Positions 8,946 through 36,140 of a DNA stretch of 41,162 bases are shown one piece after another. Both the position numbers and the translations under genes were made by a program. Each line of letters starts with the position of its first letter. Position 1 is the stretch's first letter. The notes below the pieces were generated by a model that was not told the DNA's origin, did no database searches, and worked only from the letters and a program-made list of their open reading frames with translations. Source of the stretch: Chloroflexi bacterium HGW-Chloroflexi-1 (GTDB lineage: Bacteria; Chloroflexota; Anaerolineae; CG2-30-64-16); contig PHCA01000041.1 in assembly GCA_002842085.1 (NCBI GenBank), forward strand, positions 1 through 41,162, written 5' to 3'.

Positions 8946-11339
8946 ATGCACGAAGAGCTGTTGGCCGGACTGAACCCGGCCCAGTTGGAAGCGGTGACTA
9001 CGATCCAGGGGCCCGTGCTGGTGCTGGCCGGCCCGGGTTCGGGCAAAACGCGCGTGCTGGCTCACCGCGTGGCCTATCTGCTGCGGGCGGTTGGCGCGCA
9101 CCCGCGCTCGGTGCTGGCGGTGACCTTCACCAACAAGGCCGCTCAAGAGATGCGCACACGCGTCAACCGGCTGCTCAACGAGACCGTGCCCACCAGCACC
9201 GGTTGGCGCGGGCTGACCCTCGGCACGTTCCACAGCATCTGCGCGTACGTCTTGCGCCAGGAGGCCCCCGCGGCCGGGCTCAACCCCAACTACGTGATCT
9301 ACGACGCCGGGGAGCAGTTGACCGCCGTACGCCAGACGCTGCGCGATCTGAAGCTGGACGACAAGCTCTACCGGCCGGAGGCGATGCGCGCGGCCATCTC
9401 CCGCGCCAAGAACGAGCTGATCCGGCCGGACGCCTTTGTGGCTGACAGCTACTGGGCCGAGATCGCCCGCCGGGTCTACGTCCGTTACGAAGAGATCATG
9501 ACGGCCAACGGCGCGCTGGACTTCGACGACCTCTTGGCCCGCACCGTGTACCTGCTGCACGATCAGCCCACGGTCCTGGAACACTATCGCGGACGGTACG
9601 CCTACCTGCTCGTCGACGAATTCCAGGACACCAACACCGCGCAGTACGAACTGGTGCGGCTGCTGGCCGGCAAAACGCACAACCTGTTTGCTGTAGGAGA
9701 CGAGGACCAGTCAATTTACGGCTTCAGGGGCGCCGACTACCGCAATGTGCGGCGTTTCCGAGAGGATTTCCCGGAGGCGAAGGTGATCTTGTTGGAGCAA
9801 AACTACCGCTCCACCGAGACGATCCTGGACACGGCCAACGCCATCATCACCCGCAACGTGCACCGCACCCCGAAGAAGCTGCGCACCCAACGCGGCCGCG
9901 GCGCTGAGGTGACGGTGCATGAGGCCTATGACGAAACGGACGAAGCCGCGTTCGTCTCGAACACCATCCAACGCCTGGTGTCCACCGGCCAGGCCCGGCT
10001 GGGTGACTGTGCGGTGATGTATCGCACCAACGCGCAATCGCGGCCGCTGGAAGACGCCTTCGTGAGCCGCGGGATGCCCTACCGGCTGGTCGGCGGCACC
10101 CGTTTCTACCAACGCCGCGAGATCAAGGATGCGCTGGCCTACTTGCGGCTGGTGCACAATCCCGCCGACAACATCGGCCTGAGCCGGGTGATCAACGTGC
10201 CGACGCGCGGGATCGGGAGCAAGACCCTCGAGACGTTGGCGACGTGGAGCGAACAACTGGGGGTGCCCATGACCGGCGGCCTGGCGCTGGTGGCAGGAGA
10301 TCTCAAGAGCCCGGCCCCGCTGGCCGAGGCGCTGGCGCGCTTCCCCGAGCCCCCCGAACACCCCTTCGGACGGGCCGCCCAGCGGGCGCTGCTCGCCTTC
10401 CACCGCATGTTGGCCGGCTGGTTGGCCGCCCGCGATGGGTTGACCGTCGCGGACCTGTTGGACCGGATCACCGAGGAGTCGGGCTACGCGACCTCGCTGC
10501 GCGACGGCACGGAAGAAGGCGAAGACCGCTGGAACAACCTGCAGGAGCTGCGGACCGTGGCCGCCCAGTACGATGAGTTCCCCCCCGACCTGCGGCTGAC
10601 CGCGTTCCTGGAAGAGGTCGCGTTGGTCTCCGATCAGGACGAACTGATCGAGGAGGAGGACCGGGTCACCCTGCTCACCCTGCACGCGGCCAAGGGGCTG
10701 GAGTTCCCGGTTGTATTCCTCGTAGGATTGGAGGAGAACATCTTCCCGCACAGCCGCAGCCTGGAGGATCCCGACCAGATGGAGGAGGAACGCCGGCTGA
10801 TGTACGTGGGGGTCACCCGGGCCAAGGACCGCCTGTACGCGGTGCGCGCCTTCCGCCGCATGCTCTACGGTCGCGGCCAAGTCAACGAGCCATCGCGATT
10901 TCTGAAGGATATCCCCGGCGTGCAGAGCGGGCCCGGCAAGGCCAGGCGGAATGCGGGCAGCTACGGCGGCTTCGCCGGGGGCGACGCCGAAGGACGTGTT
11001 GGCGCGGCGTTGGGCCGCGCAAAAGGTGGAGGAAGCGCTGCTAACGACGAAACCGGTTTCGGTTTTCAGTCGGCGGCGGCTAAACGGGGCCCATCGGGCG
11101 GCGCGAAGTGGTCTCCGGGCGCGTATCGACCGGCCTCGGATGAAGAACCAGTCCAGGCTCAAGCCCGCCAGACGCAGTTCGAACCCGGAGATCGCGTCGA
11201 CCACGGCCTGTTCGGGCCGGGCGTCGTGCTCAAATCCGAGCTGACCGCGGGCGATGAGGAAGTGACTGTGACGTTCGCGGGCAAAGGCGCCAAGACGCTG
11301 TTGGCGAGTTTCGCCAGGCTGCGGAAGATCGGCCAATAG
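8946..11339 (+). CDS. pcrA: ATP-dependent DNA helicase, UvrD/PcrA family
   Basis: AGGAG lies 5 nt upstream of the ATG. Walker A AGPGSGKT, LLVDEFQDTN, FAVGDEDQSIYGFRGA, VMYRTN, LLTLHAAKGLEFPVVFL, YVGVTRA. The C-terminal segment GDRVDHGLFGPGVV is Tudor-like. Confidence 0.95.
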   Translation: MHEELLAGLNPAQLEAVTTIQGPVLVLAGPGSGKTRVLAHRVAYLLRAVGAHPRSVLAVTFTNKAAQEMRTRVNRLLNETVPTSTGWRGLTLGTFHSICAYVLRQEAPAAGLNPNYVIYDAGEQLTAVRQTLRDLKLDDKLYRPEAMRAAISRAKNELIRPDAFVADSYWAEIARRVYVRYEEIMTANGALDFDDLLARTVYLLHDQPTVLEHYRGRYAYLLVDEFQDTNTAQYELVRLLAGKTHNLFAVGDEDQSIYGFRGADYRNVRRFREDFPEAKVILLEQNYRSTETILDTANAIITRNVHRTPKKLRTQRGRGAEVTVHEAYDETDEAAFVSNTIQRLVSTGQARLGDCAVMYRTNAQSRPLEDAFVSRGMPYRLVGGTRFYQRREIKDALAYLRLVHNPADNIGLSRVINVPTRGIGSKTLETLATWSEQLGVPMTGGLALVAGDLKSPAPLAEALARFPEPPEHPFGRAAQRALLAFHRMLAGWLAARDGLTVADLLDRITEESGYATSLRDGTEEGEDRWNNLQELRTVAAQYDEFPPDLRLTAFLEEVALVSDQDELIEEEDRVTLLTLHAAKGLEFPVVFLVGLEENIFPHSRSLEDPDQMEEERRLMYVGVTRAKDRLYAVRAFRRMLYGRGQVNEPSRFLKDIPGVQSGPGKARRNAGSYGGFAGGDAEGRVGAALGRAKGGGSAANDETGFGFQSAAAKRGPSGGAKWSPGAYRPASDEEPVQAQARQTQFEPGDRVDHGLFGPGVVLKSELTAGDEEVTVTFAGKGAKTLLASFARLRKIGQ

Positions 11340-11340
11340 C

Positions 11341-11627
11341 AGATGGCAAATGGCAAATGGCGGATGGCAGATGGCGGATGGCAGATGGCGGATGGCAGAT
11401 GGCGGATGGCAGATGGCGGATCGCAGATGGCGGATGGCAGATGGCAGATGGCAGATGGCGGATGGCAGATGGCAGATGGCGGATGGCAGATGGCAGATGG
11501 CGGATGGCAGATGGCAGATGGCGGATGGCAGATGGCAGATGGCAGATGGCGGATGGCGGATGGCGAATAGCAGTGGCAAACCGGCAATCGCAAATCTGAA
11601 ATCGCAAATCGCAAATCGCGACCTTCG
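11341..11627. repeat. Heptamer tandem arrays: (GGCAAAT/GGCRGAT) about 33 units, then (AATCGCA) about 6 units
   Basis: Read directly. Starts 2 nt after the pcrA TAG stop and generates the spurious MADGRWQ ORFs. Confidence 0.97.
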
Positions 11628-11640
11628 CAAGGTTCTTTGC

Positions 11641-11925
11641 CTAAACAGAAACTGGCCTGAGCCACGCACGGGCGAGTATCCAGCGGCCGAGCAGCCCCTG
11701 GCTGCCGGCCGCAGCGAGCCGCAGCTCGAAGGTCTCCTGCGTGGGCGTGCGGACCAGGTAGCAGCGCCACACGACCCCATCGACCTCTTCCAGCCACTCG
11801 CGGCCGGTGTCGGCGATATAGCGGGTGCGCTCGCGCCAGATGAAGGCGGTCGGCACGATCCGACCGTCGGGCATGAACCGGGCCTGGACGAGGATCGGTT
11901 CGTCCACGAATTCAGGTAGGGACAT
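11641..11925 (-). CDS. Small hypothetical protein (about 94 aa)
   Basis: Protein-like composition (MSLPEFVDEPILVQARFMPDGRIVPTAFIWRERTRYIADTGREWLEEVDG..). ATG at 11925 has GGAGA 7 nt upstream. I recognise no family. Confidence 0.45.
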   Translation of the reverse strand: MSLPEFVDEPILVQARFMPDGRIVPTAFIWRERTRYIADTGREWLEEVDGVVWRCYLVRTPTQETFELRLAAAGSQGLLGRWILARAWLRPVSV

Positions 11926-12640
11926 GAGTTTCTCCAACAAACGTTACGACGCGGTGACCCTGGACATGGGGTTCACCCTGGTCAATCTGGAGGGCAGCAC
12001 GCATCGCGATCTGCTCGCCGCGCTGGCGGCAGAAGCGGGCCTGACCCTGACCCTGGACGACGTTCGTCGGGCGATACGCGCTTTCTGGCGCGAGTGGACG
12101 GCCGAAAATGCCACGCGCGTGTGGCATCCCAGCCTGGCCCAGGATCAGGCCTCCTCCTACGAGATAGACCAGCAAATCTGTCTGCGGCTGGGCATCACCG
12201 ACCCGGCTCTGCACGCCGAGGCCAACCGCCGTTCGGAGGCGATCTTCCACGACCTGGCGACCTTCCAAGTCTTCCCCGAGGTGTTCGAGGCGTTGACCAC
12301 CCTACGAACGCAGGTGGAGACCCTGGGCATCCTCTCCAACTGGGGGTGGCGATTGCCGGAGTTGTGCGCGGCATTGGGCCTGGCCGACTACTTCGACTTC
12401 ATCATCACCTCGGCCCGGATCGGCGCGGCCAAACCCCACCCGAACATCTTCCGGGCCGCGCTCGCCCGGGCTGCGAGCGACCCGGCGCGCACCCTGCACG
12501 TGGGCGACGATCTCGCCGCGGACGTGCACGGCGCCCAGGCGCTGGGCATCACCGGCGTATTGCTGGACCGGCACGGCGCCATCACACCCGACGGTTTTCC
12601 TGTCGTGCACAGTCTCACCGAGGTGGTGACGCTTTTGTGA
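11924..12640 (+). CDS. HAD-superfamily hydrolase, subfamily IA (haloacid dehalogenase / REG-2-like type)
   Basis: Motif I VTLDMGFTL (DxxxT type), motif II ILSNW, motif III AKPHPNIF, motif IV HVGDDLAADVHGA. Confidence 0.85.
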   Translation: MSFSNKRYDAVTLDMGFTLVNLEGSTHRDLLAALAAEAGLTLTLDDVRRAIRAFWREWTAENATRVWHPSLAQDQASSYEIDQQICLRLGITDPALHAEANRRSEAIFHDLATFQVFPEVFEALTTLRTQVETLGILSNWGWRLPELCAALGLADYFDFIITSARIGAAKPHPNIFRAALARAASDPARTLHVGDDLAADVHGAQALGITGVLLDRHGAITPDGFPVVHSLTEVVTLL

Positions 12641-12770
12641 CACGGTGACCGGGTGACAAGGTGACATCGAGTAACATCGCTGTGCCTCCTTGTTTACTCT
12701 TGTCTACTTGTCTACTTGCCTACTTATCCCTTGTCTACTTGTCTACTTGTCTACGCGTTTCCTTGTCTCC
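12637..12770. repeat. Paired octamer arrays: (GGTGACAN)x4 (12637-12668) and (CTTGTCTA-like) about 10 units (12689-12770)
   Basis: Read directly. Lies between the convergent HAD and pncC genes. The HAD TGA stop (12638-12640) is inside the first unit. Confidence 0.95.
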
Positions 12771-13263
12771 TCAAATACCGTACCAACAGCCGCAACACCG
12801 CCTCGGCCGAGAGCCGTTTGTTCCCGATCCGATCAGCGTCCCACACGTGTCGCTCGCCGATCTCCGCGTCGGCCGCCGAGAGGTGGAGATGCACCAGCCC
12901 CACCGGCTTGCCTGGCAGCCCGCCCTCCGGCCCCGCGATGCCCGTCACCGAGGCCGCGATGTCCGCGCCGAAGAGCCGTCGCGCGCCCTGCGCCATCTCC
13001 GCGGCCGTCTCCGCGCTCACCGCGCCGTGGGCCAGCAGCGTTTCGTGCCGCACGCCCAACACCGCCTCCTTGGCGCTGTAGGCGTAGGTCACCGCGCTGC
13101 CCAGGAAATAGTCCGAGCTGCCCGACACGTCGGTGACCAGACTGCCGGTCAACCCGCCCGTGCACGACTCGGCCAGCGCCAGGGTCAAGCCTTGCGCTGT
13201 CAGGAGTCGGCCAACTTCTTCGGCCAACACAAGTGCCGACTGTAAGTTGTGCATGTTATGCAC
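12751..13263 (-). CDS. pncC: CinA C-terminal-domain / nicotinamide-nucleotide amidohydrolase PncC family protein
   Basis: LALAESCTGGL..SLVTDVSGSSDYF..VTYAYSAKE..LGV....HGAVS.E.A..MA.G......ADI..SVTGIAGP.GG...KPVG.V. This is a typical CinA/PncC signature. GTG start with GAGGA upstream. Confidence 0.88.
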   Translation of the reverse strand: MHNMHNLQSALVLAEEVGRLLTAQGLTLALAESCTGGLTGSLVTDVSGSSDYFLGSAVTYAYSAKEAVLGVRHETLLAHGAVSAETAAEMAQGARRLFGADIAASVTGIAGPEGGLPGKPVGLVHLHLSAADAEIGERHVWDADRIGNKRLSAEAVLRLLVRYLRRQGNA

Positions 13264-13323
13264 TTGATCCTCAAGATTCCGGTTGATAGTTCCCCAGCCA
13301 GCGAATGCGCGGGTAATCTGCGT

Positions 13324-13435
13324 GGATGGCGGATGGCGGATGGCGGATGGCGGATGGCGGATGGCGGATGGCGAATGGCGAATGGCGGATGGCGAATGGC
13401 GGATGGCGAATGGCGAATGGCGGATGGCGGATGGG
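13324..13435. repeat. Heptamer tandem array (GGATGGC/GAATGGC) x16
   Basis: Read directly: 112 nt, 16 units. Lies between the divergent pncC and moxR genes. Confidence 0.97.
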
Positions 13436-13481
13436 TCATGGGCACAGTGTAGCCGATCGACGGGTATCCGTCAACTGAACC

Positions 13482-13505
13482 GCGGGCGCTGCTGACAGCG
13501 CCCGC
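13482..13505. terminator. GC-rich hairpin GCGGGCGCTG-CTGA-CAGCGCCCGC immediately upstream of the moxR promoter
   Basis: 10-bp perfect stem. No clear U-tract, so its function as an insulator or terminator is inferred. Confidence 0.4.
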
Positions 13506-13534
13506 TTGACTCTCGTGGCCGCCGCTGGTATACT
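13506..13534 (+). promoter_or_regulatory. Sigma70-like promoter TTGACT-17 nt-TATACT for moxR (about 190-nt leader)
   Basis: Read directly: TTGACT 13506-13511, TATACT 13529-13534. Confidence 0.6.
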
Positions 13535-13731
13535 CAACCCGAAAGCAAGTCACAGACGGAGCACCCAATGAGACCGTTCCGGAAAAATAGATATCCCATC
13601 CGCTCTGTAACTGGAGCCGGCTCAGGACCGGCGGCTCAGCCAGCTATTGGGCAAGCAGCAGGCGGGATCGTTGACCGAGGCGGAGCTGGCTGAGTTGTTC
13701 ACGCTGATGCAGGTTTACCAGGAGTCATTTC

Positions 13732-14697
13732 ATGGAACACCTCGAGGTCATCGCCTCGCTGGCCGAGCGAGTGGTCGACAACGTCGAGCACGTGATCATC
13801 GGCAAACGACGCGAGGTGGAGATGACGCTGATCGCGCTGCTGTGCGAGGGGCATCTACTGATCGAGGACGTACCGGGCGTCGGCAAGACGATGCTGGCGC
13901 GCGCGATCGCCAAATCGATCGGCTGCTCGTTCCGGCGCATCCAGTTCACCCCCGACATGCTGCCCAGCGACGTCACCGGCGTCTCGGTGTTCAACCAGAA
14001 GACGCGCGAGTTCGAGTTCCGGCCGGGCCCGGTCATGGCCCAGATCGTGCTGGCGGACGAGATCAACCGGGCCACCCCCAAGACCCAATCGGCCCTGCTG
14101 GAGGCGATGGAAGAGCGCCAGATGACTGTAGATGGCGTGACCTATATCATGGAGAAACCGTTCCTGGTGCTGGCGACACAAAATCCGATCGAATACGAGG
14201 GCACCTTCCCGCTGCCCGAAGCGCAAATCGACCGCTTCATGATGCGGGTGAGCCTGGGCTACCCCGCCAAAGCAGACGAGATTCGCATCCTGGAATCGCA
14301 GCGGGAACATCACCCGATCCAGGACATCGGTCAAGTGGTGACGGCCGCAGAGTTGTTGGCCGCCCAAACCGCGGTGCGCCAAATCTACGCGGACAATCTG
14401 ATCAAGGAGTACATCGTCGATCTGGCCAACGCCACCCGCCACCATCCGGACATTTACCTGGGCGTAAGCCCGCGCGGCAGCCTGGCCCTCTTCAAAACGG
14501 CCCGCGCCTACGCGACCTTGCAAGGCCGCACCTACGTCATCCCGGACGACCTCAAGGCGCTGCTGGCATCGACCTTTGCGCACCGCTTGATCATCAGCCC
14601 GTCGGCGCGCATCAAGAACGTCGAGGCCACCGCCGTCGTCGAGCAGATCGCCGCGTCGGTGCCGGTGCCAGGGACGCGGGTGAGGGCCATACGGTGA
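13732..14697 (+). CDS. moxR: MoxR-family AAA+ ATPase
   Basis: AGGAG lies 8 nt upstream. [33 protein letters not shown] (Walker A), [23 protein letters not shown] (Walker B / sensor), [22 protein letters not shown]. Confidence 0.93.
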
Positions 14698-14767
14698 CAC
14701 GGTGACAGGGTGACAGGGTGACAAGGTGACGGGGTTGTCTACTTGTCTACCTGTTTCCTTGTCTACC
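14693..14767. repeat. Paired octamer arrays: (GGTGACAN)x5 followed directly by (TTGTCTAC-like) x4
   Basis: Read directly. The moxR TGA stop (14695-14697) is inside the first unit. Same unit pair and order as at 12637-12770. Confidence 0.95.
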
Positions 14768-14786
14768 CCAAAGCGAGGTCCAACCA

Positions 14787-16067
14787 TTGCGACGTTCCTG
14801 GGGCATCTTCCTCCTCTGGCTGCTGGCGCTGGTGTTCGCCTCGAGCACCGGGCGCGATCTGGCATTCAACCTGTTCTACTTCGTCACCGGGGTGATCTTG
14901 ATCGCGCTGTGGTGGGCCTGGTCCAATATACGCGGACTGGCGCTGCGACGAGTTACCCGGTCCCAACGCTCCCAGGTGGGCAAGTATTTTGAAGAGTCCT
15001 TGGAGCTGTCCAACCAGGCGCGCTGGGCCAAGTTATGGATCGAGGTGCATGATCTCTCCGATCTGCCCGGGCACCAGGTCAGCCGGGTGGTCAATTCGCT
15101 GCGCGGCCGGACGACCTCGCGCTGGCAGGTGCGCACCTTGTGCCAACAACGCGGCCGCTTCGCCCTGGGGCCGCTGGCGCTCACCAGCGGCGATCCGCTC
15201 GGCATCTTCAGATTCACCCGCACGCTCCCCGGCACGACGTCTCTGGTCGTCACACCGGCTATCATCCCCATCCCCGAATTCATCCAACCCACCGGCTATC
15301 TGCCTGGCGGAGAAGCGATGCGCCGCCGCACCCCCTACGTCACCGCCAGCATCTCCGGTGTGCGCGAATACGCGCCCGGAGACAGCTTCAACCGCATCCA
15401 CTGGCCTTCGACCGCCCGGACCGGCCGGCTGATCTCCAAGGAGTTCGAGCTGGACCCGCTGGCAGATGTGTGGATCTTTCTGGATATGTACGGGCCGGCC
15501 CAGGCCCAATCCCCCTGGATGCCCAAGGCCACCGACCCGTTGCCCTGGCTGACGCGCCGCGCGGACAGCGTCGAGCTGCCGCCCAGTACCGTCGAATATG
15601 GCGTCACCGTCGCCGCGTCCCTGGCCAACCACTTCCTCCAGGCGGATCGGGAGATCGGCTTTCTCAGCTACGCGCAACACCGCGAGATGGTCCAACCCGA
15701 CCGGGGAGAGCGGCAGTTGACCCGTTTGCTGGAAATTCTGGCCGTGATCCAGGGTACCGGGACCATTCCGTTGGCGCAAGTGCTCGCCAGCGAGGGCGCA
15801 CACATGGCCCGCCACACGACCCTGGTGGTGATCACCCCTGCGACCGACCATCACTGGGTCAGCGTGTTGCGAGGGCTGCGCGCCCGGGGCGTGCAAGGGG
15901 TCGGCATCCTGCTGGCCGGCAGCACGTTCGGCGCCGCGCCCGACTGGCAGCCGGTCCTCGGCGACCTGCAGGCCAGCGGCCTGCCCTCCTACCTGGTGAA
16001 ACGCGGGGACGACCTGGCCGTCGCGCTCAGCGGCCAACCCGGTGGGATCGGCCAGCCGAGGCGCTGA
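14787..16067 (+). CDS. DUF58-domain protein (usual MoxR partner), with two N-terminal TM segments
   Basis: TTG start with GAGG 8 nt upstream. DUF58 core GVREYAPGDSFNRIHWPSTARTGRLISKEFE. Sits directly downstream of moxR. Confidence 0.85.
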   Translation: MRRSWGIFLLWLLALVFASSTGRDLAFNLFYFVTGVILIALWWAWSNIRGLALRRVTRSQRSQVGKYFEESLELSNQARWAKLWIEVHDLSDLPGHQVSRVVNSLRGRTTSRWQVRTLCQQRGRFALGPLALTSGDPLGIFRFTRTLPGTTSLVVTPAIIPIPEFIQPTGYLPGGEAMRRRTPYVTASISGVREYAPGDSFNRIHWPSTARTGRLISKEFELDPLADVWIFLDMYGPAQAQSPWMPKATDPLPWLTRRADSVELPPSTVEYGVTVAASLANHFLQADREIGFLSYAQHREMVQPDRGERQLTRLLEILAVIQGTGTIPLAQVLASEGAHMARHTTLVVITPATDHHWVSVLRGLRARGVQGVGILLAGSTFGAAPDWQPVLGDLQASGLPSYLVKRGDDLAVALSGQPGGIGQPRR

Positions 16068-16112: not shown

Positions 16113-16250
16113 GGGGTAAATTGGTAAATTGGTAACGGGGTGAATTGGTAAATTGGTAACGGGGTAAATTGGTAAATTGGTAACGGGGTAAATTGGTAAA
16201 TTGGTGACAGGGTGACCAATCTACCAACCTACCAACCTACCAATCTACCA
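16113..16250. repeat. Hierarchical array: 24-nt unit GGGGTAAATTGGTAAATTGGTAAC x4 (itself built of GGTAAATT octamers), then GGTGACAGGGTGACC, then (CTACCAAY) x4
   Basis: Read directly. Ends at the ATG (16251) of the S8 peptidase. Confidence 0.95.
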
Positions 16251-18218
16251 ATGTCTCACCAAACCCGACAGATCCTGCGCTTGACCGCGGTCGCGGCGAT
16301 CCTCCTGGCGCTCGTGGCAACTGCTACCAGCACCGGTATCAACCTGGCCGCGGCCGGTAGCGGCGCTCCTCGACCGGCGCCCGCTGCGTCTGCGCCCGCT
16401 GCGTCTGCGCCCGACCGCGGCCAACCGGACTGGGCCGCGCCACGCGTGGCAGACCAGTTGCTGGTCAAGCTGCCGGATGGCCAGGCCCTCCCGGACCAGG
16501 CCGCGCTGGCCCGCGCGGGTGTCCGCCTCCTGCGCACCATCCCGCAATTGGGGCTGGCAGTAGTCGCAACGCGGCCCGGCGCCGATCTGGCGGCCTCTGC
16601 TGTCGATCTGGCGGCCTCTGCTGCCGATCTGGTGGATCGCGGCGGGTTCGCGTGGGCCGAGCCCAACTACACCTTCGGCCTGGACCTGGCGCCGAACGAC
16701 CCGGACTACGCCGCGCGCCAGAGCGTCTACCTGGGCCGGATGGGCATGCCCGCGGCCTGGGACCGCACCACCGGCCTCCCCTCGATCATCATCGCGATCG
16801 TAGACACCGGCGTGGACCTGACCCACGAAGATCTCTACAAGGGTATCTGGATCAACCCGGGCGAAGTGCCGGGCAACGGCGTGGACGACGACGGCAACGG
16901 TTTCGTGGACGACGTCAACGGCTGGGATTTCGCGGACAACGACAACGTACCAGACGACGACTACGGCCACGGCACCCATGTGGCGGGCATCGCGGCCGCG
17001 CGCATCGACAACGCCGTGGGTGTTGCCGGCATGGCCGGCGCCGCCACCATCATGCCCGTGGACGTGTTCCCGCACAGCGCCTACGGCACCTACGAGGATT
17101 TGATCCGGGCGATCATCTACGCGACCGACAACGGCGCAAACGTCATCAACATGAGCCTGGGCGCCACTTCCTACAGCCAGGGCGAAGAAGCTGCGGTGGA
17201 CTACGCCTGGTCGCACGGCGTGGTCGTGGTCGCGGCGGCCGGCAACACCGGCCGCTGCTCCTACCACTATCCGGCAGCCCATGTCCACGCGATCGCCGTG
17301 GCGGCCACCGACGCTTACGACAACCTGGCCGGCTTCTCGACCCGCGGCGACTTCGTGGACGTGGCCGCGCCCGGCGTGGGCGTCTGGTCCACCTACCGCG
17401 GCAACCGCTACGGCTCGATGAGCGGCACCAGCATGGCCACGCCGCACGTGTCGGGGCTGGCCGCGCTGATCCTGTCGCTGAACCCGAACCTGACCCCGGA
17501 CCAGGTGCGCACGCTCATCGAGGCCAACGCCGACGACCTGGGCGCGCCCGGCTGGGATCCCGAGTTCGGCCACGGCCGGATCAACGCCGCGCGGGCGTTG
17601 GCCGCCGTGCCCGGCAACACCACGCCGCTGCCCACGCCCACGCCGCATCCGCCGCTGCCCGAGTGGCCGGCCGGCTGCCAGGACCTGCTCGACGATGGCG
17701 ACTTCGAGGCGGGCGCCGCGGTCTGGCAGCCGCACGGGGACGTCACGATCGACGCGCTGCGCGCCTACTCCGGCGCCCACGCCGCGCATTTTCCCGGCGG
17801 GCCGGACACCCGCGGCATCCTGACCCAGACGATCACCCTGCCCCCCTTCCCCCAAGAAGCCACCCTCTGGTTCGCCTACCGCATCGAGAACCAGGATCAG
17901 GGCTGGGGCAGCACGTCCGAAGCGCCCTATGACGACTGGTTCACCGGCGAGTTCCGGGCGGCCGACGGCCGCGTCATCAGCTCACTGCTGCGCACCGGCA
18001 ACTCGGCCGACACCGCGTCCGATGGGCTGCCGTGGGATCGCTATCTGTACCGGATGCAGTTCGCCGATCTGACGGCTTTACGGACGGCCGGCTCAGTGGA
18101 CCTGGTCTTCAGCGCGGGGAACGACGGGGACACGCTGCCCACCGACGTCTGGCTGGACGCGGTGCGCTTCTGCGTCAGGGGCGGGTATGGGTGGATTTTC
18201 CCGGTGATCTTGAAGTAG
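16251..18218 (+). CDS. Secreted subtilisin-family (S8) serine peptidase with a C-terminal CBM-like domain
   Basis: Catalytic triad contexts IAIVDTGVD, GHGTHVAGIAAA, GTSMATPHVSGLAAL. N-terminal TM/signal LRLTAVAAILLALVATA. The C-terminal domain (CQDLLDDGDFEAG...VWLDAVRFCV) resembles the C-terminus of the 6231-8489 hydrolase. The ORF also opens at GTG 16212, inside the repeat array. Confidence 0.92.
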   Translation: MSHQTRQILRLTAVAAILLALVATATSTGINLAAAGSGAPRPAPAASAPAASAPDRGQPDWAAPRVADQLLVKLPDGQALPDQAALARAGVRLLRTIPQLGLAVVATRPGADLAASAVDLAASAADLVDRGGFAWAEPNYTFGLDLAPNDPDYAARQSVYLGRMGMPAAWDRTTGLPSIIIAIVDTGVDLTHEDLYKGIWINPGEVPGNGVDDDGNGFVDDVNGWDFADNDNVPDDDYGHGTHVAGIAAARIDNAVGVAGMAGAATIMPVDVFPHSAYGTYEDLIRAIIYATDNGANVINMSLGATSYSQGEEAAVDYAWSHGVVVVAAAGNTGRCSYHYPAAHVHAIAVAATDAYDNLAGFSTRGDFVDVAAPGVGVWSTYRGNRYGSMSGTSMATPHVSGLAALILSLNPNLTPDQVRTLIEANADDLGAPGWDPEFGHGRINAARALAAVPGNTTPLPTPTPHPPLPEWPAGCQDLLDDGDFEAGAAVWQPHGDVTIDALRAYSGAHAAHFPGGPDTRGILTQTITLPPFPQEATLWFAYRIENQDQGWGSTSEAPYDDWFTGEFRAADGRVISSLLRTGNSADTASDGLPWDRYLYRMQFADLTALRTAGSVDLVFSAGNDGDTLPTDVWLDAVRFCVRGGYGWIFPVILK

Positions 18219-18246
18219 GGCAAATGGCAAATGGCAAATAGGAAAT
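18219..18246. repeat. Heptamer array (GGCAAAT) x3-4
   Basis: Begins at the nucleotide after the S8 peptidase TAG stop. Same unit as the first units after the pcrA stop. Confidence 0.9.
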
Positions 18247-36063: not shown

Positions 36064-36108
36064 GAAAAATCATTTGTGAAACGCAAAGCACGTTCGGGCA
36101 CTTGCAGG

Positions 36109-36140
36109 TTACTCATTACTCGTTACTCGTTACTCGTTAC
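36109..36140. repeat. Heptamer array (TTACTCG) x4-5
   Basis: Read directly. On the minus strand it is (GTAACGA)n and starts 2-3 nt after the guaA TAA stop. Confidence 0.9.

Follow-up and report, generated by a model that had tools for sequence, protein, structure and literature searches.

Polar arrays of 7- and 8-nt repeats behind stop codons in an Anaerolineae genome

Two gene junctions in contig PHCA01000041.1 of Chloroflexi bacterium HGW-Chloroflexi-1 (assembly GCA_002842085.1) carry tandem arrays of short units that overlap the stop codons of three genes. The 41,162 nt of this contig are referred to here as the window. Site 1 separates the gene for a HAD-family hydrolase from pncC, and site 2 separates moxR from a DUF58 gene. 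The arrays belong to an already described class of polar short-unit repeats that are anchored at stop codons. The best explanation for both sites, to which we assign a probability of roughly 0.6, is that each is a local instance of a class of 7-8-nt arrays that is spread throughout the genome and was placed behind existing stop codons with fixed polarity. A reading made from the window's sequence alone had proposed that insertion of a composite array redefined the 3' ends of these genes and acts as an all-frame stop plus terminator module. Its observation is sound, as is the enrichment of arrays at stop codons that it suspected, but the meaning that it proposed is mostly wrong.

Under our explanation, the class would be of the long simple-sequence-repeat (SSR) type. 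Next to a stop codon the sense strand would be the G-rich, C-poor one and the neighboring array would be C-rich, so that pairs of arrays would read 5'-G-rich...C-rich-3' on both strands and would tend toward complementarity. The first unit takes in the old stop codon together with a pre-existing match of 4-7 nt (TGAC at the HAD gene and ACGGTGA at moxR).

Gene ends and their arrays

Direct reading and Tandem Repeats Finder (TRF) agree that (GGTGACAN)n overlaps the TGA codons of the HAD and MoxR genes and that (CTTGTCTA)n overlaps the pncC TAG, as the sequence-only reading had reported with correct coordinates. At the HAD stop, TRF finds a GTGACANG array of 3.8 units (12637-12666(68)) that can also be read directly in the sequence. 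The array at 14691-14730, which includes the MoxR TGA, can be summarized as (NNGGTGAC)5. The first unit at the HAD gene needs a minor correction, since it reads TGTGACAC rather than GGTGACAC. Both GGTGACAN arrays do present TGA in all three frames with stop-free opposite strands, and the stop-carrying strands of the arrays at all three gene ends have a stop in every frame.

HAD orthologues from five further genera (six genomes) end in ...EV(L/V)xLL* at the same aligned position, with a stop codon that has no array. MoxR ends in ...VPVPGxRxRxx* in 29 relatives and at 80 further Chloroflexota loci, at the same position within 1-2 residues and mostly with TGA. Most of the first 29 relatives have 11-20 nt between moxR and DUF58, and the median length of this spacer at another 50 loci is 18 nt, with no array. 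Because orthologues without arrays end at the identical residue, these comparisons indicate that both TGA codons are ancestral. The HAD array begins at the older TGA-C, and the first unit of the moxR array is itself the ancestral ACGGTGA. Thus, the claim that arrays redefined gene ends fails for HAD and MoxR.

The same claim is correct, on a small scale, for pncC. The minus strand has its TAG stop codon at 12751-12753, where the plus strand reads CTA. Pfam places the end of the CinA domain at residue 164 of the 170 in the gene product, and relatives have unconserved C-terminal tails of 0-10 residues after ...RYL. A core of seven CTTGTCTA units occupies 12699-12754, and degenerate flanking units extend the TRF array to 12689-12770. 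The degenerate units at 12754-12770 encode the tail RRQGNA, so that the last six residues and the stop are all encoded by the repeat. Homologous units (GGAAACGx|GTAGACAA) occur at the pncC end in two other genera (G003 and G010). There, as here, degenerate units encode the tail that follows ...RYL, and the gene stops at the first TAG that a unit presents in frame. An older array common to the three genera overwrote the unconserved pncC tail and supplies its stop codon.

Neither G003 nor G010 has a HAD gene beside pncC. Since the spacer between the site 1 arrays is also unique, site 1 is best described as two independently anchored arrays that face each other rather than as a single module. The composite that the sequence-only reading saw at both sites is nevertheless recurrent, with GGTGACAN on the left and YTTGTYTM on the right at 7 loci in the genome. 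The two unit types are complementary at 6 of 8 positions, as claimed. At 13 junctions in the genome, TTGTCTAC is mixed on one strand with its exact complement TTGTCACC. It follows that CTTGTCTA is a diverged CTTGTCAC variant and a diverged form of the true complement of GTGACAAG.

A small DUF6504 open reading frame (ORF; 11641-11940, minus strand) adjoins the start of the HAD frame, taken here as 11825-12640 on the plus strand. This ORF directly follows pncC in several relatives, so the HAD gene was apparently placed between them in the present lineage.

Arrays at stop codons across the genome

The genome is a 4.45-Mb, 419-contig metagenome-assembled genome (MAG) of a groundwater Anaerolineae bacterium, in which 3652 genes were called with a simple codon-usage caller. 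TRF returns about 1000 rows each for periods 7 and 8, which reduce to 1516 non-redundant arrays with 256 canonical units. The GGTGACAN family accounts for about 142 arrays and the CTTGTCTA family for about 28. Whereas 675 of the 1516 arrays are cleanly intergenic, 224 lie on a stop codon. Array starts are concentrated within -8 to +7 nt of the stop (76 + 167), compared with about 35 per 8-nt bin further off. The stop codon lies inside an array for 201 of the 3652 genes, and it is the first stop triplet of the array in 132 of these and the second or a later one in 69.

To obtain expected values, array blocks were placed randomly within their own intergenic regions. Blocks abut a 3' end in 191 cases where 76.6±7 are expected, and they are depleted at 5' ends (26 observed, 64 expected). 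When at least 150 nt of free room is available, 87 blocks abut a 3' end where 13.9±3.6 are expected. Geometry alone, with short ancestral spacers pushing arrays against stop codons, is ruled out because this 6-fold enrichment persists where there is ample room. The check that the sequence-only reading had called for thus gives the enrichment that it suspected, side by side with the identical C-termini that contradict its account of the HAD and MoxR ends. About 11 further genes that have arrays at their stops were compared with the array-poor relative G007. Five have the same last residue, two are longer by two residues, and one (on contig C387) has a 12-residue tail encoded by a repeat element.

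Arrays also occur on or right after the stop codons of three other genes in the window, always with the G-rich strand as the sense strand. The TAG of a UvrD-like helicase gene is followed by (GCAGATG)32 at 11339-11564, an S8 peptidase gene has (GGCAAAT)3 at 18219-18239, and guaA has (GAGTAAC)4.7 on the minus strand at 36108-36140.

Coding sequences throughout the genome have a GC skew of +0.19 in their last 20 nt, +0.10 in the preceding 20 nt, and about 0.03 further upstream. This skew may be the residue of degenerate array units in C-terminal tails.

Polarity and pairing

Near 3' ends, the stop-bearing strand of an array is the sense strand by about 9 to 1. Units that lack stop codons on both strands follow the same rule. 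Directly behind a stop codon (0-6 nt), G exceeds C on the sense strand of 54 such arrays and C exceeds G in 4, and the ratio is 56:12 at 7-30 nt. At 61-120 nt, where partner arrays lie, it is reversed (14:44). Stop-bearing sense strands make up 41% of arrays located 7-30 nt behind a stop and 43% of G-rich strands genome-wide. Selection for the stop codons themselves is ruled out, since stop-free units behave alike. Stops in all frames result simply from the scarcity of C in the sense-strand units and do not represent the function of a module.

Isolated single arrays near 3' ends also have a G-rich sense strand (about 164:30), and they have no polarity near starts. The latter observation excludes selection against G-rich arrays that resemble Shine-Dalgarno sequences upstream of starts as the source of polarity. 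Background base skew is excluded as well, because the GC skew of non-array DNA behind stops is only about 0.01-0.07.

The arrays also pair in a nearly fixed order. Along the plus strand, 239 of the 404 adjacent pairs separated by no more than 80 nt have the G-rich array first and the C-rich array second, and only 3 have the opposite order. This order is kept between codirectional, convergent, and divergent genes. At least 32 G-then-C pairs are located inside genuine coding sequence, on either gene strand, and the order in sampled relatives is 11:0. Inverted repeats with at least 74% reverse-complement identity constitute 107 pairs, where 4.6% would be expected. Different unit families are combined in 58% of G-then-C pairs, whose complementarity is loose. 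Even so, true partners fold better with each other (-0.85 kcal/mol per arm nucleotide) than do re-paired arms (-0.63; p = 1e-16). As single RNA strands, G-rich arrays have some self-structure and 70% of C-rich arrays have none. The genome encodes Rho, but avoidance of this factor as the sole cause of the pair order is weakened because the order also holds inside translated coding sequence.

The moxR-DUF58 junction

The two arrays at site 2 are predicted to form an RNA hairpin (14701-14767). The plus-strand fold has -37.5 kcal/mol (z -3.4), compared with -30.5 kcal/mol (z -2.9) for the minus strand. A 2-nt internal loop interrupts the stem every 6 bp. The hairpin starts 3 nt past the MoxR TGA and leaves the DUF58 ribosome-binding site unobstructed. 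A hairpin had been thought possible for each pair of arrays, but the fold of site 1 (z about -1.1 on both strands) is no better than that of shuffled sequence. A role as terminator finds no support: both sites lack a U-tract, and a scan for consensus terminators was negative at the arrays.

Arrays or hairpins built of unrelated units are found behind the moxR stop in at least seven lineages. In G022 and G010, the insert reads (GGAAGCT)n...(AGCTTCC)n and lies between the stop and a retained ribosome-binding-site region. The sequence aacgaggtyc, the homologue of the GCGAGG region, is kept behind the unrelated arrays in both genomes. The same-genus genome G001 has the left array at moxR and a different right side.

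In G001, (GGTGACAN)5 follows moxR and is succeeded by pheS rather than by DUF58 (L002, G001:C362, 1124-1500). This break in synteny at the moxR array is either a real rearrangement or a chimeric join at the repeat, and G001 is a highly fragmented assembly in which many contigs end inside arrays. Upstream of moxR, a promoter-like TTGACT-17 nt-TATACT with a TG is present at 13506-13534 of the window. Its TATACT is also the terminal hexamer of a repeat element described below. Coordinates for the features of both sites are collected in Table 1.

Table 1. Positions of genes, arrays, and related elements (window coordinates unless a contig is named)
Feature	Position	Strand	Remarks
HAD-family hydrolase gene	11924..12640	+	Pfam PF00702; TGA 12638-12640
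(GGTGACAN) x ~4 array	12637..12668	+	first unit includes the pre-existing TGA(C); G-rich on the HAD sense strand
Spacer between site 1 arrays, 20-30 nt	12669..12688	.	unique; only chance 11-mers recur in the genome
(TAGACAAG)n array, minus-strand reading	12689..12770	-	carries the pncC TAG 12751-12753
pncC (CinA C-terminal-domain) gene	12751..13263	-	Pfam PF02464
MoxR AAA+ ATPase gene	13732..14697	+	Pfam AAA_3 + AAA_lid_2; TGA 14695-14697
(ACGGTGAC/AGGGTGAC/AAGGTGAC) x5 array, hairpin 5' arm	14691..14730	+	first unit equals the ancestral ACGG-TGA
GGGG loop at hairpin apex	14731..14734	+	
(TTGTCTAC) x4 array, hairpin 3' arm	14735..14766	+	from TRF and fold
Shine-Dalgarno-like GCGAGG and DUF58 TTG start	14773..14789	+	free, 3' of the hairpin
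DUF58 gene, conserved moxR partner	14787..16067	+	Pfam PF01882; follows moxR in most relatives
MITE-like copies	C205:19150-19260 (L214); C243:22283-22400 (L215); C310:27099-27160 (L217)		
Bracketed PF05635 cassettes	C252:13893-14492; C367:1164-1737; C3:2780-3492; C73:9347-9864; C294:3997-4625		

Turnover, modules, and other repeats

Two other assemblies of the same population, from ENA and JGI, have flanks identical to the window and an unchanged site 1. At site 2, both contain an extra 54 nt, TGAC(CAATCTAC)6CC, exactly at the apex of the moxR-DUF58 hairpin (L226/L227:3500-3560 compared with window 14731-14735). Arrays change quickly: a given site holds other units in other lineages, and this whole six-unit apex array is present or absent within one population. 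A Logan contig ends inside the apex array.

The spacer between DUF58 and the S8 peptidase gene also varies. Both assemblies have 92 additional nucleotides there (L226:5075-5170 compared with window 16250-16256), which consist of about 11 CCAATCTA/CCAACCTA units and TAGGGGAATCATTCT, a stretch that resembles the ribosome-binding site of the peptidase. The window joins ...CCAAT|GTCTCACC and hence is without this stretch. The difference represents either a real deletion variant or a collapse of the assembly.

Of the 140 pair loops that are 10 nt or longer, 36 contain a 10-mer core that recurs, in either orientation, in a loop at another locus. About 40 copies of an element that resembles a miniature inverted-repeat transposable element (MITE) have the form TATACTCGCCACGGTCATAAAGTGAGG[TTTTTT or CCGATGC/GCATCGG mini-hairpin](GTCACCTT)nGTCAAGTATA. 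The terminal inverted repeats of this MITE-like element are imperfect, a TA duplication is possible, and the (GTCACCTT)n array next to one terminus expands. At least two genes (on C267 and C387) take their last codons from the end of the element, ...TATACT|TGACAAGG. Rfam has no match for the window, for either site, or for the MITE-like element.

Six genes in the genome score above the cut-off for PF05635, the family of the four-helix-bundle protein S23p of 23S rRNA intervening sequences (IVSs). Four or five of them are bracketed by a G-rich array on the left and a C-rich array on the right, both from common families. The cassette on C252 starts 2 nt past the TGA of the upstream gene. A G...C bracket surrounds only 9 of the 3652 genes overall, and ordinary genes with arrays on both sides have the opposite arrangement (C...G). 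Both sites in the window are empty of an ORF, and they have no core in common with the PF05635 cassettes.

A single Y1 transposase gene of the IS200/RAYT type (RAYT, REP-associated tyrosine transposase; REP, repetitive extragenic palindrome) is located at C159:1-760. Copies of a REP-like repeat of about 100 nt (…CCAGCCTGCGGAGGCAGGCTTTGCAACTGTTGCCGCGACTTCCAGTCGCC…) flank it on both sides. An REP system driven by a RAYT is ruled out as the source of the arrays, since this sole Y1 transposase is flanked by its own repeats, which are unrelated to them.

Comparison with known systems

The closest counterparts of these arrays are heptamers with the sequence GGGAATC in Xanthomonas and GGGGAYT in Nostoc PCC 7120 (Rehm et al. 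2015, PLoS One, PMC4692102). According to the same study, they number in the hundreds per genome and are mostly intergenic. Their G-rich strand is the sense strand when they lie within 50 bp of a stop codon or overlap it, and they are on the antisense strand upstream of ORFs. Each Xanthomonas genome has 70-75 convergent pairs. The repeats are rare between divergent ORFs. Transcripts start or stop at these heptamers somewhat more often, and no function has been established (PMC4692102). The arrays described here likewise have many copies of units of the 7-nt class, a G-rich sense strand at the stop (at all three stops of sites 1 and 2), and convergent pairs. They differ in that there are 256 unit types of both 7 and 8 nt rather than one family per genome, in that many pairs mix unit families, and in that the host is an Anaerolineae (Chloroflexota) MAG. 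G-quadruplexes are not expected here, unlike for the heptamers of Rehm et al., because GGTGACAN, CTTGTCTA, and TAGACAAG have no G3-G4 tracts (G runs of at most 2).

Long SSRs with 5-11-nt units were reportedly described in large genomes of non-pathogens by Mrazek et al. in 2007. Both these SSRs and the heptamers among cyanobacterial short tandemly repeated repetitive (STRR) sequences resemble the present arrays as abundant non-coding arrays of short units that are unlinked to phase variation. Placement at stop codons and G-then-C polarity are not known to be part of either description. Phase-variable contingency SSRs are excluded as a model here. With array starts located at or behind the stop, gain or loss of units has no effect on HAD or MoxR, nor on pncC beyond its first TAG.

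Heptamer direct repeats of TAACTGA occur in Beggiatoaceae, cyanobacteria, and Bacteroidetes (MacGregor 2015, PMC4679880). They are also intergenic arrays that contain stop codons and have one dominant strand relative to genes, but they are mostly found a few nucleotides upstream of starts, and they are direct repeats with only one inverted set reported.

REP elements and the bacterial interspersed mosaic elements (BIMEs) that contain them are similar as dispersed extragenic palindromes at operon junctions and 3' ends. Each REP is one imperfect palindrome, about 35 nt long, that has a GTAG head and is tied to RAYTs, whereas the arms here are tandem arrays of variable length. REP elements stabilize upstream mRNA, and the many that are no more than 15 nt from a stop codon stall ribosomes (PMC12306157).

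IVSs in 23S rRNA that carry an S23p (PF05635) ORF are excised by RNase III (Warrier et al. 2016, PMC4990558). They share with the present arrays the inverted arms around an optional four-helix-bundle gene, and the bracketed genes here have arms of the same families as the "empty" pairs. In contrast to an rRNA IVS, both sites in the window lack an ORF and are between protein genes.

Finally, site 2 resembles a Rho-independent terminator in having a stem-loop directly behind a gene. It differs in its stem, which is broken every 6 bp and is followed by CCCAAAGCGAGG instead of U residues, and in having a co-oriented operon partner 20 nt downstream. The conserved-end terminal inverted repeats and target-site duplication that are typical of MITEs are both absent at the moxR site.

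Possible origins and functions

If the arrays belong to a class that is placed behind existing stops, a new site may acquire a copy of an array that is already present elsewhere, or a small palindromic module. Spread of this kind is suggested by the loop cores that are shared across loci and by the brackets around PF05635 genes, which are like those of 23S rRNA IVSs. Later growth and shrinkage could occur by slippage, and lack of constraint on the sequence from a stop codon to the following ribosome-binding site would allow arrays to persist. In this view, the hairpin between moxR and DUF58 would be a consequence of the array process, and it could still act on the mRNA as REP elements do. A more specific version of this scheme is tentative at best. 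In it, the G-then-C pairs would be the arms of small palindromic cassettes related to rRNA IVSs. Some of these cassettes would contain a PF05635 gene, but most would lack one. A polar mechanism acting on DNA would both install and enlarge them at the first untranslated nucleotides behind stops, for instance when breaks in the hairpin apex lead to snap-back or 3'-end-primed copying of G-rich strands. Cleavage of their stems in mRNA would uncouple neighboring cistrons.

Several points weigh against placement of a polar class behind existing stops. Short ancestral spacers and background base composition both fail to account for the polarity and the stop anchoring. Filled and empty moxR sites differ by neither a target-site duplication nor conserved termini, and movement of the arrays as a module is therefore something that we infer. 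Arrays break assemblies, so some junctions in this fragmented MAG could be misassembled. The positions of gene ends also rest on the gene caller, but the polarity of pairs is independent of annotation. Another possibility, which we consider doubtful, is that paired arrays are selected RNA elements. They could be intercistronic or 3'-terminal stem-loops like REPs and BIMEs that protect 3' ends or stall ribosomes within 15 nt of the stop, RNase III sites as in rRNA IVSs, or a means of hiding C-rich RNA from Rho. The position and stability of the site 2 hairpin, with its z score of -3.4 and free DUF58 ribosome-binding site, agree with this idea, as do the superior complementarity of true partners, the existence of Rho together with C-rich strands that essentially do not fold in 70% of cases, and the appearance of hairpin-forming inserts at the moxR junction in at least seven lineages. 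There are also precedents in the REPs of Escherichia coli, which stall ribosomes when located within 15 nt of the stop (PMC12306157, citing Liang et al. 2015), and in the Xanthomonas repeats, where transcripts start or stop more often (PMC4692102). However, the loosely complementary mixture of families in 58% of G-then-C pairs and the site 1 fold (z -1.1), which is like that of shuffled sequence, are difficult to reconcile with selection on RNA structure. So are the missing right arm in the same-genus G001 and the 54-nt array in the hairpin apex of two same-population assemblies. In addition, the polarity is kept in translated coding sequence, where Rho and terminators are irrelevant, and a spacer of 11-20 nt suffices between moxR and DUF58 in most relatives.

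A purely local origin, in which each array arises by slippage from a chance proto-repeat at its stop with no copying between loci and no module, is unlikely. It would fit the match between first units and ancestral sequence (ACGGTGA and TGAC), the 256 unit types, and the unique core between the site 1 arrays. It does not readily explain why a small number of unit families are each found at over 100 loci, why identical loop cores and junctions are found at several loci, or why about 40 MITE-like copies carry (GTCACCTT)n. The strict G-then-C order among unrelated families would be hard to obtain by independent slippage, and the 54-nt apex array already points to the appearance of arrays as a whole. 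Least probable of all is the original proposal of a composite insertion that redefined gene ends as an all-frame stop and terminator. The 9:1 bias of stop-bearing strands toward the incoming gene speaks for it. So do the 69 of 201 genes that use a second or later stop triplet, with their last codons encoded by the array, and the tails encoded by repeats in pncC and in the C387 gene (12 residues). Nevertheless, the proposal is refuted for both HAD and MoxR by the identical ends of array-less orthologues. Stop-free units have the same placement and polarity, and the share of stop-bearing strands near stops (41%) is no higher than among G-rich strands genome-wide (43%). A U-tract is missing, and the first stop triplet is used by 132 of 201 genes, whereas insertion in random frame would give one-third for each.

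Implications

In this genome, 201 of the 3652 genes (about 5%) have their end in a repeat array, and the overlap of an array with a stop codon is no evidence that the repeat made the gene end. These overlaps do mark spots where assemblies break or collapse. A repeat class that was first described in Xanthomonas and Nostoc follows the same rules in Chloroflexota with many unit families: arrays begin at stop codons with the G-rich strand in the sense direction, and a G-rich array precedes a C-rich one in an order that is nearly absolute (239:3) and extends to coding regions. The shared rules point to a common mechanism that links the end of translation to the formation or retention of repeats, and this genome is a dense data set for working out the mechanism of stop-anchored repeats.

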